From the IMG/VR virus record IMGVR_UViG_3300045988_089644: 41,619 nt of DNA, one strand, 5' to 3'. The notes under the pieces are model-generated. The model had not been told where the DNA came from. It worked only from the letters and a program-made list of their open reading frames with translations, and did no database searches. Origin of the DNA: a virus. The stretch's first letter is position 1; each line of letters begins with the position of its first letter. The position numbers and the translations under genes are program-made. Of this stretch, positions 143-41,619 are shown one piece after another.

Positions 143-814
143 ATGCAAATGAAACCGACAAAACGAATGTTGATAACTGTATTCCTTGGATTCTTAGGAG
201 TACATAAGTTTATGGATAGGAAGATTGGAATGGGGTTCTTATACCTGTTCACAATGGGACTTGGAGGTATAGGGTGGATAGTTGATTCATGTAAGGCTAT
301 CGCCGGGTGGTGCAAGTGGATTGCATCGCCAAATAAACACGCTATGGATTTTTCCAAACCTAAGGGTAGACGTTATCAGAATACCCCTTATCATCATCCA
401 GAAACGATACCTGAACCTGAACCCGTGTACAATTTCAACCAGCCTTACGATGATATGGACGGTCACACATTTGAACATTATTGTGCTGACTTATTAACTG
501 AAAACGGTTATGAGAATGTTGAAGTAACAAAAGGAAGTGGAGACCAAGGGCTTGACGTTATTGCATACCGGGATGGTGTTAAGTATGGAATACAATGTAA
601 ATGCTATTCTTCTGACATCGGAAACAAGGCTGTTCAGGAAGCATTTGCAGGTAAGACATATTATAACTGTCATGTTGCTGCAGTCTTAACGAACAGACAC
701 TTTACCAAATCGGCTAAAGAACTGGCTGAAAGTAATAAAGTATTGTTATGGGATAGGGAAAAACTAGAAGAATTTGTTCAAAATTCACATTATTACAATA
801 CTAATTACAATTAA
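143..814 (+). CDS. Membrane-anchored Mrr-type (PD-(D/E)xK) restriction endonuclease-like protein with N-terminal TM2 domain
   Basis: 223-aa ORF. RBS AGGAGG at 134-139; ATG at 143 or, better spaced, at 149. N-terminus FLGFLGVHKFMDRKIGMGFLYLFTMGLGGIGWIVD fits the TM2 two-helix domain. C-terminus GHTFEHYCADLL..GDQGLDVIAY..GIQCKCY..VLTNRHFTKSA fits the Mrr_cat core. Confidence 0.75.
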   Translation: MQMKPTKRMLITVFLGFLGVHKFMDRKIGMGFLYLFTMGLGGIGWIVDSCKAIAGWCKWIASPNKHAMDFSKPKGRRYQNTPYHHPETIPEPEPVYNFNQPYDDMDGHTFEHYCADLLTENGYENVEVTKGSGDQGLDVIAYRDGVKYGIQCKCYSSDIGNKAVQEAFAGKTYYNCHVAAVLTNRHFTKSAKELAESNKVLLWDREKLEEFVQNSHYYNTNYN

Positions 815-1211: not shown

Positions 1212-2231
1212 ATGGGAAAAAGAAACCCGAATGGGTATGGGTGTGTAACGAAGCTGTCAGGTAAGCGTTCCCGACCATGGTGCGTTAAGGTGACAATATA
1301 CGATGCAGAAGGGAATGCCAAGCAAACCCCTGTCGGTTATGCAGAAACTGAGGAACAGGCTAATATATTACTTGCACAATATAACAATAACCCCTGGAAC
1401 ATACAGAGGGAAAAAGTCACCCTGTCCGTTTTATTTCAACGCTGGTTGGAGATTAAAGCCCCTAAACTGGGTGGATCCAACCGGGCTGCATTGAAAAGCG
1501 CATATAAACACTTAAATAAATATTATGGTGTGAAATACCGCTCTATAAGAGCTTACCAGATGCAGGAGACGATTGATAATTGCGGATTGAGTTATTCAAT
1601 GCAAGCTGTGATAAAATCCCTATGGGGGCATTTAGACCGCTTTGCGTTTGAATTAGACATAATAGATAAGATGTACTCTCAACTACTCACCAGTGAGCCG
1701 GTACCAGAGACAACACGTGAACCGTTCACACCTGATCAGATTAATGCACTCTGGAAGATTAAGGACGAACCATGGGTGAATACGGTACTTATATTCATTT
1801 ATACCGGATTCAGATTAAACGAATTACTGACTATGAAAACAGATCAGGTGGATATGAGAGAGAAATATTTCAGAGCCGGTTCTAAGACTGCATCTGGAAA
1901 GAATAGAATTGTTCCGATACATCCGCGCATCTTACCGTTTGTGCAGGAACTTGCAGAACAGGGTAACACCTATCTTATCACTTACAAGAATGGTAAGAAA
2001 ATATACAGTGCAACTTACTATAAGTTTTGGGGTCAGATAATGGAGAAAATAGGTGCAGACAAAACACCCCATGAAGCTCGTCATACTTTTGAGACGATGC
2101 TTGACAATGCGAAAGCGAATAAGAAATGTATTGATATGCTCATGGGTCATAAGTCCAAAGACGTAGGAAACAGGGTCTATAATCATAAAACAATAGACCA
2201 GTTACGAGAGACAATAAACCTAATAAAATAA
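1212..2231 (+). CDS. int: Tyrosine recombinase / phage integrase with AP2-like N-terminal arm-binding domain
   Basis: 339 aa. C-terminal HEARHTFETML ... LMGHKSKDVGNRVYNH (H-x-x-R ... Y catalytic signature). N-terminal GKRSRPWCVKV...GYAETEEQA resembles the integrase AP2-type DNA-binding domain. Confidence 0.9.
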   Translation: MGKRNPNGYGCVTKLSGKRSRPWCVKVTIYDAEGNAKQTPVGYAETEEQANILLAQYNNNPWNIQREKVTLSVLFQRWLEIKAPKLGGSNRAALKSAYKHLNKYYGVKYRSIRAYQMQETIDNCGLSYSMQAVIKSLWGHLDRFAFELDIIDKMYSQLLTSEPVPETTREPFTPDQINALWKIKDEPWVNTVLIFIYTGFRLNELLTMKTDQVDMREKYFRAGSKTASGKNRIVPIHPRILPFVQELAEQGNTYLITYKNGKKIYSATYYKFWGQIMEKIGADKTPHEARHTFETMLDNAKANKKCIDMLMGHKSKDVGNRVYNHKTIDQLRETINLIK

Positions 2232-36722: not shown

Positions 36723-37877
36723 CTATTTACCCTCACTTTCAATCTTGATACCTGTACACTGTTCGAAAATCTCAATGTCAAAATTAGGAATTGACTTGAT
36801 TTTATTTCTATCTGTTTCTGAAAGATCATTCCACCAAATCTGAGCGCATTCAGATTCATCAAGAACTTTAAGATAACCGCCTGTTGTCTTATAAGATGGA
36901 TGTGCTTTCTTTTCTTCTTCCGTCATATAATTCTCATATACCCACTCAACGACATCTTTAGGAATATCCATCAGCAAGTATCTAGCATCAGAATTTAACC
37001 AATCTCTGTATGTCCATTTGGATGGTTTATTGAACAACATGATTGTTGATTCTTCTGTGTTAAAACAACCAGTATTGAAAGAAGATTTGTTCCAGTCCCC
37101 GGTGTTTCTGTTCCCGGTGTTGCAGTCCCCGGTGTTTCTGTTCCCGGTGTTGCAGTTCCCGGTGTTGCAGTCCCCGGTGTTGCAGTCCCCGGTGTTGCAG
37201 TTCCCGGTGTTGCAGTCCCCGGTGTTCCAGTCCCCGGTGTTGCAGTCCCCGGTGTTCCAGTCCCCGGTGTTGCAGTCCCCGGTGTTGCAGTCCCCGGTGT
37301 TGCAGTTCCCGGTGTTGCAGTCCCCGGTGTTGCAGTTCCCGGTGTTTCTGTTCCCGGTGTTCCAGTCCCCGGTGTTCCAGTCCCCGGTGTTCCAGTCCCC
37401 GGTGTTGCAGTTCCCGGTGTTTCTGTTCCCGGTGTTGCAGTCCCCGGTGTTCCAGTCCCCGGTGTTTCTGTTCCCGGTGTTCCAGTCCCCGGTGTTTCTG
37501 TTCCCGGTGTTGCAGTCCCCGGTGTTGCAGTCCCCGGTGTTGCAGTCCCCGGTGTTGCAGAGTCCTGTACAACTCTTTCCTGTATTTACGATAGTTAAGA
37601 GTTCCTGCCATGGGATTTCACGAACTATTTTGATTTTATTCGTACAGCACTTATCATCACCTCTTACGATGTCACCGTATGCGATAACTTCCGCTACCTT
37701 ATTGTCAGGATTAAAGCTATAATAATTAAAACAATCCGCTGCATTCTCACAAAAATGAAAACCTCTGTCACAACAACTTGGTTCAACATCTTCTTCAAAG
37801 ATTTTTCCTACCTCATACTGGAAACCTCTGCAAGTCCAATCTGGATTAAAAACCTTAAATCCTCTTACTTCGTTCAT
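36723..37877 (-). CDS. Pentapeptide-repeat protein: conserved Cys-rich N-terminal domain, about 31 perfect G(D/N)(C/W/R)NT repeats, and a C-terminal domain
   Basis: Start MNEVRGFKVFNPDW at 37877 with a GAGAGG RBS. N-terminal domain FKVFNPDWTCRGFQYEVGK...CDRGFHFCEN. The repeat run NTGDC/NTGDW/NTGNR was read directly. Confidence 0.8.
   Translation of the reverse strand: MNEVRGFKVFNPDWTCRGFQYEVGKIFEEDVEPSCCDRGFHFCENAADCFNYYSFNPDNKVAEVIAYGDIVRGDDKCCTNKIKIVREIPWQELLTIVNTGKSCTGLCNTGDCNTGDCNTGDCNTGNRNTGDWNTGNRNTGDWNTGDCNTGNRNTGNCNTGDWNTGDWNTGDWNTGNRNTGNCNTGDCNTGNCNTGDCNTGDCNTGDWNTGDCNTGDWNTGDCNTGNCNTGDCNTGDCNTGNCNTGNRNTGDCNTGNRNTGDWNKSSFNTGCFNTEESTIMLFNKPSKWTYRDWLNSDARYLLMDIPKDVVEWVYENYMTEEEKKAHPSYKTTGGYLKVLDESECAQIWWNDLSETDRNKIKSIPNFDIEIFEQCTGIKIESEGK
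37091..37560 (-). repeat. Tandem array of about 31 x 15 bp (CCCGGTGTTnCAGTn on the plus strand) encoding the pentapeptide repeats
   Basis: Visible as near-identical 15-mers across eight sequence lines. All six frames are open across it. Confidence 0.95.
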
Positions 37878-37901
37878 TTCTGTTACCTCTCTTTCTCGAC
37901 C

Positions 37902-38048
37902 TAGTTTTCGCATACTTCAATGTTAATAATTCTCGCTGAACTATGTGTTTTCTTGAAATTTTCTTTTACTTCTTCCTCGCTTGCAGCCCTGCCATACCAT
38001 TCGGATGTATAACAGTTCTGTCCATAATAAACTCTATATAATCTCATG
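37902..38048 (-). CDS. Hypothetical protein (48 aa, below the ORF-track cutoff)
   Basis: Hand translation: MRLYRVYYGQNCYTSEWYGRAASEEEVKENFKKTHSSARIINIEVCEN. AGAGAGGA RBS upstream. Confidence 0.45.
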
Positions 38049-38773: not shown

Positions 38774-39499
38774 TTAGGGTGCTAAGAACTTGTTAATGAA
38801 ATACTGTTGTCCTTTACCTGTGACTTTAGTTGTCTTAGTAGTGACATTTACCCCGGCTCCATTAATGTAAGAACCCTCTTTGATTTCAAATAAACCAAGT
38901 TCCATTGCTCTTTGTGTCGGCATATTCTTAGCTGAACCACTCTTGATGAGAAAACCATTCTCACGCATCCATGCGAATAATCTTCGTTGTCCTGTCTCAA
39001 TGCCGTTCTGTTTTAACAGCTTTGCAAGTTCTCCGATTAAGATTGATGTGTGACTTGCTGAGACTGCATCTGCAAAAATCTCTTTCGGTCGCATTCTCTC
39101 AACGTCTTCAATCAATGCTGCATTATCAGATTTCAATGACTCAATAGTTTTGTCAGCCATCTTTAATGCTCTAGCAAAAATCTGTTCAGGTGTGTTCCAA
39201 GCCTTTTCAAGATCGAGAAAATACTGTCTGTATAGTCTGCCTTTTTCCGAACGCTGAATCATACAGATCTGTTTTGCCATGTCTGTCGAAATTTGATAAT
39301 CAACCATGTTCTGGGCTCCGCCGAGGGTGGGACATTTTTGGTACACCCTTTTCCAATCTACATTTTCTGTAAATCCATACTCAGTCATACGAGGAAACCA
39401 CTTCCTAAAATCAGTGTTTATTTCCAAACCCTCATGTAAATCTCTTGCAGAGACAGTTGGCTGCTCCGCGTCGTAGTTGATAGGAATTAAAGCTTTCAT
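38774..39499 (-). CDS. Phage antirepressor (AntA/pRha-type N-terminal domain plus KilA-C-type C-terminal domain)
   Basis: 241 aa. VSARDLHEGLEINTDFRKWFPRMTEYGF at the N-terminus and IGELAKLLKQNGIETGQRRLFAWMRENGFL at the C-terminus. Confidence 0.75.
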   Translation of the reverse strand: MKALIPINYDAEQPTVSARDLHEGLEINTDFRKWFPRMTEYGFTENVDWKRVYQKCPTLGGAQNMVDYQISTDMAKQICMIQRSEKGRLYRQYFLDLEKAWNTPEQIFARALKMADKTIESLKSDNAALIEDVERMRPKEIFADAVSASHTSILIGELAKLLKQNGIETGQRRLFAWMRENGFLIKSGSAKNMPTQRAMELGLFEIKEGSYINGAGVNVTTKTTKVTGKGQQYFINKFLAP

Positions 39500-40260: not shown

Positions 40261-40342
40261 CTCTTCACCTCACTTTCTATGACCTGCCATCATCAGTACC
40301 GGGAGGTCATTCCCGGCAGACGGTCATTTCTGACCGTTTCGG

Positions 40343-40576
40343 CTAATTTGAAATGTTCTGCAATCCTGCAATCACAAGTGCAAGTGATGTTATTCCGTTG
40401 TTTTCTTTTTTTGCCTGAGCCGTCAATGCTGAATAAAGTTCATGAGGTATATTCTTCGTGCCGTTTAAAACTGCTAAACATTCATCGTAGGTTAATAAAT
40501 TAATCATTTCTTTCGCCTGCTCAATATTTTCAAGCTTATCAATTTTCTTATTTGCTAAATCTTCTCTTGTTATCAT
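40343..40576 (-). CDS. First early-operon protein (Cro position, no obvious HTH)
   Basis: 77 aa. AGGAGGAAAAC RBS. Immediately downstream of the divergent promoter/operator region. Confidence 0.55.
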   Translation of the reverse strand: MITREDLANKKIDKLENIEQAKEMINLLTYDECLAVLNGTKNIPHELYSALTAQAKKENNGITSLALVIAGLQNISN

Positions 40577-40606
40577 GTTTTCCTCCTGTTTTGTGTGTTG
40601 CTTTTC

Positions 40607-40710
40607 TTAACTTGGTTATACTTTATCATAACTCAGATAGCTTGTCAACCGTTTTTTATAACTCAGTTATATTTTTTATTGACTTTATAATTACCATGGT
40701 GTACTATACT
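40607..40710. promoter_or_regulatory. Divergent immunity region: three ATAACTnAGTTAT-like operators plus early (minus) and repressor (plus) promoters
   Basis: Operators: TTAACTTGGTTAT (40607-40619), ATAACTCAGATAG (40628-40640), ATAACTCAGTTAT (40658-40670, palindromic). Minus-strand promoter TTGACA (40643-40648)-N17-TAAAGT (40620-40625). Plus-strand promoter TTGACT (40679-40684)-N17-TACTAT (40702-40707). Confidence 0.55.
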
Positions 40711-40732
40711 AATTAGAAAGGAGGTGTCAAAA

Positions 40733-41113
40733 ATGAATCATCTTAATGAAAGAATTAATTATCTGATAAAGAGTCTCGGGATGAAAAAAACAGCTTTCGC
40801 TGAAAAACTTAATGTATCGCAGGCTTTTGTATCACAATTATGTTCAGGAGTTAAACAACCTAGCGAAAGAACAATACAAGATATATGTACTAAATTTAAT
40901 GTGAATGAAGAATGGTTACGAACTGGAAAGGGCGAAATATTCATCAGGTTATCTCGTAACGATGAGATTTCAAAATTCGTTGGGGAATTAATGAAAGAGG
41001 AAGAAGATTCCTTTAAGAATAGGTTAATCGCGGGACTGGCTGCGTTAGATGATACTGGATGGGACGTGTTAGAAACATTCCTTAATTCAATCCAACCAAA
41101 AGAAAAAGACTAG
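40733..41113 (+). CDS. CI-like XRE-family repressor without a peptidase S24 domain
   Basis: ATG at 40733 is 8 nt after AAAGGAGG. LGMKKTAFAEKLNVSQAFVSQLCSGVKQPS is an HTH_XRE segment. The C-terminal ~55 aa show no Ser/Lys S24 signature. Confidence 0.7.
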   Translation: MNHLNERINYLIKSLGMKKTAFAEKLNVSQAFVSQLCSGVKQPSERTIQDICTKFNVNEEWLRTGKGEIFIRLSRNDEISKFVGELMKEEEDSFKNRLIAGLAALDDTGWDVLETFLNSIQPKEKD

Positions 41114-41130
41114 AGGTTTTCCCTCTAGTC
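41108..41130 (-). terminator. Intrinsic terminator, strong on the minus strand
   Basis: GACTAGAGG / CCTCTAGTC 9-bp stem. On the minus strand it is followed by TTTTTCTTTTGG. On the plus strand only TAAGATG follows. Confidence 0.7.
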
Positions 41131-41220
41131 TAAGATGCCACAGATAAAGAAATACACGTTTTTCAGACAGGGTGTATCTAATTTATCAAGCATTTCAATA
41201 ATAAGTTTTTTGTAGTCCAC
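41125..41220 (-). CDS. Candidate 31-aa micro-protein under LexA-box control
   Basis: GTG start 8 nt after AAGGAG. Hand translation: (M)DYKKLIIEMLDKLDTPCLKNVYFFICGILD. The stop lies inside the terminator hairpin. Confidence 0.35.
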   Translation of the reverse strand: MDYKKLIIEMLDKLDTPCLKNVYFFICGILD

Positions 41221-41238
41221 ATTATCAGCTCCTTATAC

Positions 41239-41252
41239 AGAACATATGTACG
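41239..41252. promoter_or_regulatory. LexA (Cheo/SOS) box 1
   Basis: AGAACATATGTACG matches the Firmicutes consensus CGAACATATGTTCG at 12 of 14 positions. It sits between the -10 element and the RBS of the micro-ORF. Confidence 0.55.
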
Positions 41253-41267
41253 AAATCCCTTGATGTT

Positions 41268-41296
41268 ATGATACACCATTTCATGAGGGATTTCAA
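41268..41296 (-). promoter_or_regulatory. Sigma-A promoter TTGAAA-N17-TATCAT driving the micro-ORF unit
   Basis: Minus strand reads TTGAAA TCCCTCATGAAATGGTG TATCAT. It is bracketed by the 9-bp inverted repeat GAAATCCCT / AGGGATTTC (41252-41260, 41286-41294). Confidence 0.5.
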
Positions 41297-41305
41297 TAGT
41301 TTTAT

Positions 41306-41319
41306 TGAACATTTGTTCT
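41306..41319. promoter_or_regulatory. LexA (Cheo/SOS) box 2
   Basis: TGAACATTTGTTCT has a perfect GAAC-N4-GTTC core. It lies 9 nt upstream of the -35 element. Confidence 0.55.
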
Positions 41320-41409
41320 TGAAAAATATGGTTATCTTGTTACGATTATTATAACTCTTTTTCTAGGAAATGGAACGATATGGAGACAATCGGACGGTTA
41401 AGCGGACAT

Positions 41410-41607
41410 TTATTTTATATTTGTCTCAAAAAGGTCTGTTATCTGACAATTCAGAGCAATAGCAAGTTTTTCAAGTGTCCGAATCTTCGGGTTAGAATCT
41501 TCGTTCATATCATCCTGAATAGTTGACTTTGGTACTCCTGATTTAAGGGAAAGCTGCCTAATGGATATATTCTTTTCATACATGACTTGAGCTAGTAATA
41601 TTTTCAT
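41410..41607 (-). CDS. Small XRE-family HTH regulator, divergent from the TM2-Mrr gene on the circular map
   Basis: 65 aa. ISIRQLSLKSGVPKSTIQDDMN is the HTH. No clear SD. The 5' end lies in the terminal repeat. Confidence 0.7.
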   Translation of the reverse strand: MKILLAQVMYEKNISIRQLSLKSGVPKSTIQDDMNEDSNPKIRTLEKLAIALNCQITDLFETNIK

Positions 41608-41619
41608 ATGATTATTATC
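41565..41619. repeat. Terminal exact direct repeat, copy 2
   Basis: Identical to 1..55. Confidence 0.95.

Follow-up and report, generated by a model that had tools for sequence, protein, structure and literature searches.

The window analysed here, i.e., the whole 41,619-nucleotide (nt) virus record IMGVR_UViG_3300045988_089644 from IMG/VR, carries close to its end a compact unit on the minus strand, in which two LexA-type (Cheo/SOS) boxes flank a promoter and are followed by a micro-ORF, an open reading frame (ORF) of 31 codons, and by an intrinsic terminator. The unit is convergent with the gene of a short CI-like repressor, and the micro-ORF product is a predicted antirepressor. These motifs had been listed in an original prediction made from the letters of the window alone, and all of them were found in place when the minus strand was read directly from 41319 to 41097; the label “micro-operon” used there does not fit, the unit being monocistronic.

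The micro-ORF and its transcription unit

The upstream end of the unit is formed by box 2 (AGAACAAATGTTCA, 41306..41319), which contains a perfect GAAC-N4-GTTC core and is separated from the −35 hexamer by 9 nt consisting of A and T. The −35 hexamer TTGAAA (41291..41296, minus strand) is followed after 17 nt by the −10 hexamer TATCAT (41268..41273, minus strand); in relatives, the former is TTGAAA or TTGATT at the same spacing, and the latter is TATTAT, TATGAT, or TATCAT. Matching the consensus at 10 of 12 positions, TTGAAA-N17-TATCAT is the second-best promoter-like site found in the region by a consensus scan. Box 1 (CGTACATATGTTCT, 41239..41252), with one core mismatch (GTAC for GAAC), lies just downstream of the −10 hexamer, and a conserved element AAGGGATTTCG (41251..41261, minus strand) is situated between them, at the predicted transcript start. 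The AAGGRATTTCG version of this element is kept in most lineages with LexA boxes, even in those with a decayed box 1, and may mark the transcript start or a site for another factor. The same element is the right arm of a 9-bp inverted repeat, GAAATCCCT/AGGGATTTC, which the original prediction had noted as bracketing the core promoter. The repeat is indeed present, but it was rejected as a feature, being at the chance level (the window contains 51 such repeats of 9 nt or longer within 45 nt) and conserved neither in its left arm nor as a repeat.

The Shine–Dalgarno sequence AAGGAG (41229..41234, minus strand) precedes the start codon by 8 nt and is replaced in relatives by GGAGG or GGAGGG at the same distance. 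The micro-ORF itself (41125..41220, minus strand) encodes 31 amino acids, MDYKKLIIEMLDKLDTPCLKNVYFFICGILD. Its start codon (41218–41220, minus strand) is GTG in the window and ATG in all ten of ten close relatives, the remaining changes in the ORF being synonymous; the change to GTG also creates an out-of-frame ATG one base upstream. The intrinsic terminator (41097..41131, minus strand) comprises a hairpin with a 10-bp stem and a 5-nt loop (41131..41107) followed by TTTTTCTTTT. The free energy of the hairpin is −16.8 kcal/mol (z = −3.5), and it is the only terminator-like site detected by the consensus scan in 40300–41619. The micro-ORF and the convergent repressor gene both end in this hairpin, their stop codons lying 11 nt apart, one in each arm; the hairpin forms on the plus strand as well, there without a U tract. 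An overlapping ORF of 44 amino acids (41312..41178) was rejected; its start lies within box 2, and the promoter falls inside it.

The peptide proved to be conserved at the amino acid level, a property on which the original prediction had made itself depend. Gene calls in 78 blocks of a public collection include the identical 31-residue product, and an exhaustive phmmer search of 1.84e9 proteins gave ten 50%-identity cluster representatives with E < 1e-3. The family consensus (alignment A1) is MDYKKxIIEMLDxLDxxxLxxVYxFIxGLLG. Among 18 distinct nucleotide versions, the numbers of differences in codon positions 1, 2, and 3 are 1474, 1017, and 2337, respectively, so that the third position varies most. 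A strong Shine–Dalgarno sequence precedes the start in all lineages compared, and 43 of 50 distinct family members have a hairpin with a T-rich tail that overlaps the stop codon or comes after it. Judged by these comparisons, the 31-codon ORF is a real protein-coding gene of a conserved micro-protein family, because identical products, ATG in relatives, family matches, the conserved Shine–Dalgarno sequence, third-position variation, and the terminator all point the same way.

The members of the family are amphipathic and charged throughout, e.g., ...LELIYRFIKKLLD, with the longest uncharged stretch of about 10 residues, and neither a hydrophobic segment of transmembrane length (~18–20 residues) nor a LysM-type domain is seen in the family sequences. 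The micro-protein has no family in Pfam or PHROGs, and the locus has no match in Rfam. A tblastn search of the peptide against 50,697 GenBank phage records gave nothing meaningful, and a degenerate DNA pattern for KNVYFFI, applied to viral contigs, retrieved mostly noise, with at least 14 true loci left after filtering.

The repressor, its pairing with the micro-ORF, and the LexA boxes

The presumed target of the micro-protein is a CI-like repressor of 126 amino acids (40733..41113, plus strand); its most likely start is the ATG at 40733, with GGAGG 8 nt upstream. As claimed in the original prediction, this repressor lacks the S24 domain: its Pfam matches are limited to HTH_3 and Phage_CI_repr, no S24 peptidase with the Ser/Lys dyad was found by the Pfam scan, and the AlphaFold2 model has no S24 fold. 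The model (predicted local distance difference test, pLDDT, 87) consists of a five-helix N-terminal helix-turn-helix (HTH) domain and an all-helical, three-helix C-terminal domain (CTD; residues ~75–120). A scan of 20 proteins from the lysogeny and early regions detected neither an S24 nor an ImmA-type protease. The repressor has 1167 homologues at E ≤ 1e-3 (counted as homologue clusters), and its family gives more than 500 matches in species-representative genomes (Lachnospiraceae, Oscillospiraceae, Butyricicoccus, Anaerotruncus, Ruminiclostridium). The best solved relative of the repressor profile is AimC of phage phi106 (9sf2_A, E = 2e-4, HTH only). Similarly, Foldseek neighbours of the full-length model include 9sf2 and 9iaq (TM ~0.46) and 1b0n, the match being carried by the HTH domain. 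Three ATAAC-N3-GTTAT-like palindromes in the cI/cro intergenic region (40607..40670), overlapping the early lytic promoter, are the presumed CI operators: one is perfect (40658–40670), one has one mismatch (40607–40619), and one has two mismatches (40628–40640).

Loci of this repressor family were fetched through the repressor and not through the ORF, yielding 36 viral contigs and 80 species-representative genomes with repressor identity of 35–71% (individual loci are designated by L and a number). In most of these 116 loci, a family-like micro-ORF convergent with the repressor gene follows directly after it, and the pairing holds down to 35–40% repressor identity. The hosts are Lachnospiraceae, Oscillospiraceae, Blautia, Roseburia, Enterocloster, Butyricicoccus, Faecalibacterium, Anaerotruncus, and Ruminiclostridium. 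The unit of exchange can be seen in the pair L011 and L013, with 98.5% identity that reaches exactly to the micro-ORF start codon; beyond it, they differ in the micro-ORF, CI, the switch region, and cro, i.e., in one cassette, and homology resumes downstream.

The micro-protein tracks one part of the repressor in particular. In 34 distinct pairs, micro-protein similarity correlates with that of the CI C-terminal 50 residues (Mantel r 0.68, p 0.0005) and, more weakly, with that of the HTH domain (r 0.43), the partial correlations being 0.42 for the CTD and 0.10 for the HTH domain. Moreover, hhalign aligns the micro-protein family with the last two CTD helices (score 19.4, P = 7e-4, 34 columns), compared with 8.0 for the reversed profile and at most 12.4 in 100 column shuffles. 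The aligned CTD stretch, D-S-F-K-K-R-L-I-x-x-L-x-x-L-D-x-x-x-W-x-x-L, covers the whole micro-protein. The likeness suggests that the micro-protein may stand in for one subunit at the repressor dimer interface, and a physical and evolutionary tie between the micro-protein and the repressor CTD appears to be supported.

The boxes were compared across relatives in the same manner. Box 2 occurs at the same place in six diverged lineages, with invariant GAAC and GTTC arms and N4 being AAAT, GAAT, GTGC, GTGT, or AGAT; the perfect core is 7–10 nt upstream of the −35 hexamer, and the promoter flanks have diverged beyond alignment. As to box 1, the L011 lineage has its equivalent in perfect form, GAACAAGCGTTC, L162/L164 have it with one mismatch, GAACATGTGTTT, and in the L025 and L055 lineages it has decayed. 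In a survey of 34 species-representative Clostridia genomes with the family micro-ORF, the 130 nt upstream of the micro-ORF contained 14 perfect cores, compared with seven in the 168 kb that make up the rest of the same loci (an 83-fold enrichment; Fisher P = 1.6e-18), and one-mismatch cores were 11-fold denser there. A core with at most one mismatch precedes the micro-ORF in 21 of the 34 loci, and box positions cluster at −60..−70 and −30..−45 from the start codon. Many of the one-mismatch sites are GAAC-N4-GTTT; known clostridial LexA operators are GAAC-N4-GTTC and GAAC-N4-GTTT, the latter being the usual one (PMC4234289). The GAAC-N4-GTTC sites are thus predicted to be real LexA boxes, and the comparative data from relatives place the boxes, the promoter, the ORF, and the terminator far above chance.

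Two further phages carry members of the same arrangement. The cultured Blautia phage Montmirail (ON453898.1, L252) encodes a 130-residue CI homologue and, convergent with it, an annotated hypothetical protein of 39 amino acids, WAK79206.1 (1910–2130, minus strand), which is the positional equivalent of the micro-ORF; of its LexA-like boxes, AAACATATGTTC lies just 5′ of the −35 hexamer TTGACT, and GAATATATGTTC just 3′ of the −10 hexamer TATACT. The Montmirail prophage in B. coccoides YL58 is inducible by mitomycin C (PMC8008629, PMC10197239). In Butyrivibrio phage Arawn (NC_048848.1, L253), an unannotated family-like ORF of 39 codons, MSNKELKQQIIDALDGINDQRALKIILQFILGIKDKLIR, with a terminator (1880–2130, minus strand) is convergent to the “transcriptional regulator” gp27 and is preceded by two tandem GTGACTAAAAAGGG repeats in place of LexA boxes.

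Genome setting and neighbouring genes

The window is a circular assembly, as follows from the 55-nt terminal direct repeat (1–55 and 41565–41619); hence, the genome is of ~41.56 kb, and the gene of the 65-residue HTH protein described below is divergent from the Mrr-like gene at 143–814. The phage is a temperate, siphovirus-like phage of gut Clostridia. Besides the lysogeny switch, it carries genes for an endolysin, an integrase, and an Mrr/TM2 nuclease, as well as an early operon that includes an AntA/KilAC protein. No near relative of the region was found among the 50,697 GenBank phage records.

Upstream of the micro-ORF and co-oriented with it lies the gene of a 65-residue XRE-type HTH protein (41410..41607, minus strand; Pfam HTH_26/HTH_3). 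Since a homologue occupies the equivalent position in only 12 of the 116 CI loci, it was rejected as a core part of the module and is treated as an accessory neighbour, which may regulate the slot of the Mrr-like gene. In relatives, a palindrome, GTGTCC..GGACGATTG, without a T tract, is positioned directly 3′ of the stop codon of this HTH gene (~41380–41405, minus strand, in the window; 2697–2716 in L011; also in L164). It is a perfect 16-bp palindrome in L164, and is broken in the window and in L001, where the right arm is mutated. The Mrr-like gene (143–814, plus strand) combines a TM2 domain and an Mrr-type restriction endonuclease domain in one protein and adjoins a tyrosine integrase gene (1212–2231, plus strand); in relatives, the same slot holds a 418-residue Mrr/NA-iREase1 protein with a serine recombinase, or an Ltp-type lipoprotein. 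It appears to be a variable position for lysogenic conversion or defence.

On the other side of the switch, the first early lytic gene (40343..40576, minus strand; 77 amino acids) is divergent from cI and retains its place in relatives. It has no family match in Pfam or PHROGs, and its cro-like role is assigned from position alone. Directly after its stop codon, at 40278–40344 (minus strand), there is a type II hammerhead ribozyme (Rfam RF02276, 50.5 bits, gathering score 37). The same ribozyme is present in L138 and in the close relatives L001, L002, L005, and L008; in the latter four it is immediately followed by a RAGATH-8 RNA of ~270 nt (RF02687, 210–289 bits), which the window lacks. Further along the early region, a 396-residue protein (36723–37913, minus strand) contains a DUF7666 domain followed by pentapeptide repeats; such repeats are often DNA mimics.

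The proposed switch and its relation to known systems

Among the prophages of gut Firmicutes, many are responsive to DNA damage though their repressors have no RecA-cleavable domain. For the locus described here, we consider it probable that the 31-residue micro-protein is a LexA-gated antirepressor. In a lysogen, host LexA would occupy the two GAAC-N4-GTTC-type boxes flanking the sigma-A-type promoter and would keep silent a monocistronic transcript of ~150 nt with the Shine–Dalgarno sequence, the 31-codon ORF, and the intrinsic terminator. Upon DNA damage, activated RecA would cause self-cleavage of LexA, the promoter would fire, and the 31-residue, two-helix protein would be made. It would then bind the repressor CTD, so that a heterodimer replaces the repressor homodimer. 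The HTH-only repressor, which could not be cleaved through RecA, would leave its three operators, and the divergent early lytic operon (the gene in the cro position, Ant, and replication genes) would be derepressed. LexA binding, damage-inducible transcription, contact between the micro-protein and the repressor, and the antirepressor outcome are all what we infer from sequence. The original prediction had suggested a LexA-derepressed antirepressor or RNA; conserved boxes, conservation at the amino acid level, and the link to the repressor CTD are in line with the former, and the evidence favours a protein over an RNA.

Several observations weigh against this model. Judged in the window alone, the two boxes are marginally beyond chance and only suggestive: there is one perfect GAAC-N4-GTTC core, box 2, with 0.54 expected, 13 cores with at most one mismatch with 14.3 expected, and six matches to the 14-mer with at most two mismatches with nine expected, while 12 of 400 Markov simulations produced a perfect core accompanied by a second core (at most one mismatch) within 90 nt (p ~0.03). 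Box 2 sits upstream of the −35 hexamer, off the core promoter, and the mismatch of box 1 falls in a core position. The GAAC-N4-GTTC/GTTT operator at the micro-ORF promoter is present as a motif-level match to the clostridial operator. About 40% of the family loci (L136-155, L157, L163-168, and phage Arawn) have no LexA-like box; therefore, SOS gating is not a defining trait of the micro-protein. As to the repressor, the co-variation with the CTD has a confounder, because the two coding regions lie side by side, and the likeness of the micro-protein to the CTD is weak, with the hhalign probability of 25–30% and individual pairs ranging from p = 0.002 to non-significant. The micro-protein profile matched no solved PDB chain, AimX included, and the CTD-only model (pLDDT 77) has no structural neighbour in PDB. 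Finally, the CI-controlled early operon already includes an antirepressor-type protein with AntA and KilAC (ANT) domains (38774–39499, minus strand); this protein cannot be the first trigger, and could reinforce induction or act on other prophages. In relatives, Bro-N + ANT is found at this position.

The absence of LexA boxes from many family loci, which means that the role of the micro-protein need not be induction, and the Ant-type protein already encoded by the phage would both fit a LexA-gated micro-protein acting on some other target, such as a host regulator, LexA or RecA (like gp7 of GIL01), cell division (as YneA/SosA-like proteins do), or superinfection exclusion. We regard this as rather improbable, given that the micro-ORF remains paired with the repressor family over wide divergence, that the cassette swap starts at the micro-ORF start codon, that the micro-protein specifically co-varies with the repressor CTD and resembles it, and that it has neither a membrane segment nor a LysM-type domain. 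The lack of a hydrophobic segment of transmembrane length, the amphipathic and charged character of the family, and the specific linkage to the repressor CTD make it hardly credible that the micro-ORF encodes a lysis-timing peptide or the small toxin of a type I-like toxin–antitoxin pair, induced by the SOS response like TisB and DinQ, even though its 31-residue size and LexA control resemble E. coli SOS toxins and the convergent neighbouring transcript could serve as the antisense.

The other two alternatives concern the transcript and its control. The product might be an RNA or transcription itself, with a LexA-controlled convergent transcript interfering with cI and the ORF being incidental: the unit is convergent with cI, the hairpin on the cI strand has no U tract, so that cI transcripts may run antisense through the micro-ORF, and an antisense role was once proposed for aimX. 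However, the strong terminator ends the micro-transcript before cI both here and in 43 of the 50 relatives, the amino acid sequence is conserved with third-position variation, as are the Shine–Dalgarno sequence and the start, no Rfam family matches, and recoded and stop-codon alleles of AimX have demonstrated that in that system the effector is the protein rather than RNA; all this renders the RNA explanation very unlikely. Somewhat less remote, but still unlikely, is that the GAAC-N4-GTTC sites are not LexA operators at all, having arisen by chance or serving another regulator, and that the micro-ORF is controlled by the 65-residue HTH protein or by CI. The weak statistics of the window alone, the conserved AAGGRATTTCG element in the same promoter, and the use of the Firmicutes/Clostridia LexA motif for comparison, which may not be that of this host, speak for this explanation. 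At the same time, the motif equals the Firmicutes/Clostridia LexA operator, its 83-fold enrichment across many genera fits a conserved host factor and not a phage-specific one, only 12 of 116 loci have the 65-residue HTH protein, and the best CI-operator-like palindrome at the micro-ORF promoter is no better than a two-mismatch match.

If the LexA-gated antirepressor model is right, it offers an answer, readable from sequence, for a large repressor family: an unannotated, LexA-gated micro-protein of ~31 residues disables the repressor. It would also extend the AimX/AimC principle beyond Bacillus arbitrium phages and provide a rule for annotating tiny genes. A broader reading, which we offer as tentative, is that the micro-protein family arose as a detached copy of the dimerisation helices of the repressor and now forms a portable plug-in induction module in gut Clostridia prophages (of Lachnospiraceae, Oscillospiraceae, and others), in which the effector–repressor pair is fixed and the promoter sensor is exchangeable. 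The sensor, in this equally tentative scheme, would be LexA boxes in ~60% of loci and sites of other regulators in the rest, e.g., the GTGACTAAAAAGGG repeats of Arawn; if so, the sequence upstream of the micro-ORF would reveal the inducing signal, SOS or not, for thousands of uncultured gut prophages. Since the principle is already known, the value of these observations lies in breadth and testability rather than in surprise, and Blautia coccoides YL58 with Montmirail, a member of the OMM12 mouse consortium, is a direct test system.

The closest known parallel is AimX/AimC. In most arbitrium loci of Bacillus phages, the gene order is aimR-aimP-aimX, then convergent aimC, then aimL (Kabel et al., bioRxiv 10.1101/2025.11.23.689978). 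AimC is an HTH-only repressor of 80–140 amino acids, and AimX has 29–80 amino acids; AimX pairs with AimC as a heterodimer via the C-terminal domain, blocking dimerisation and operator binding, and recoded and stop-codon alleles show the effector to be the protein and not the RNA (bioRxiv 10.1101/2025.11.23.689978). In phi106, AimX of 29 residues is encoded just downstream of a LexA site and convergently with AimC (bioRxiv 10.1101/2025.11.23.689978; PDB 9sf2, 9iaq); structure 9sf2 contains the phi106 repressor together with AimX. The experiments on this LexA-controlled AimX (bioRxiv 10.1101/2025.11.23.689978; PDB 9sf2) mean that a 31-residue effector is not a novelty, contrary to what the original prediction had expected. 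The same order is seen here: a small ORF faces, immediately upstream and in convergent orientation, the gene of a short HTH-only repressor whose CTD is helical, and a cro-like gene is divergent beyond it. Likewise, the LexA site upstream of the small ORF in phi106 has its counterpart, at the motif level, in the two Cheo-type boxes, the small protein co-varies with the repressor, and the proposed action is binding to the CTD in place of the second subunit. On the other hand, no AimR-sized gene is adjacent here: upstream of the micro-ORF lies the 65-residue HTH_26 protein and then, across the junction, the Mrr-like nuclease and the integrase. The hosts are Clostridia rather than Bacillus, two LexA boxes flank the promoter, and the micro-transcript is ended by a terminator of its own, without overlap with the repressor gene. 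The micro-protein does not detectably resemble AimX in sequence, and the similarity of CI to AimC is limited to the generic HTH domain.

A similar principle operates in SinI/SinR of Bacillus subtilis (PDB 1b0n), where an XRE-type repressor is inactivated through heterodimer formation with a small helical antagonist that looks like its C-terminal oligomerisation helices. The differences are that the system considered here is a phage lysis–lysogeny switch and not a biofilm control circuit, that the proposed regulator is LexA instead of Spo0A, and that the CTD has three predicted helices; the Pfam SinI domain (PF08671) has no match in CI or the micro-protein at E ≤ 0.01.

The proposed logic of a LexA-repressed antirepressor with cognate specificity directed against a repressor not cleavable through RecA is shared with Tum of 186/Fels-2, AntI/O/T of Gifsy (PMC3121763), and Sar/SroF of SPbeta/phi3T (10.1101/2025.11.27.690993). 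Those proteins, however, are much larger, the folds of the repressors are different (SroF is integrase-like), as is the mechanism (Sar acts by DNA mimicry), and the LexA motif of Tum and Gifsy is of the E. coli type. The TF-smORF modules of plasmid-like phages (transcription factor and small ORF; Silpe et al., 2023, PMC10432266) also use a small unannotated ORF beside a transcription factor gene to inactivate cI. They are SOS-independent, with the transcription factor activating a divergent smORF of ~50–60 amino acids, whereas in the module described here the neighbouring HTH gene has the same orientation as the micro-ORF and can be dispensed with (12 of 116 loci), and control is ascribed to the LexA boxes. 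In GIL01, gp7 (PMC4551915) is a small protein in an SOS-linked switch of a Firmicutes phage as well, but it binds LexA and strengthens repression, and GIL01 has no CI-type repressor; the small protein considered here would be a target of LexA. Membership in the AimX family is not established, because there is no aimR/aimP and the micro-protein shows no similarity to solved chains including AimX. The locus is best regarded as representing a family, widespread and independent of arbitrium, that would work like AimX/AimC and SinI/SinR; the family is new and the principle is known.

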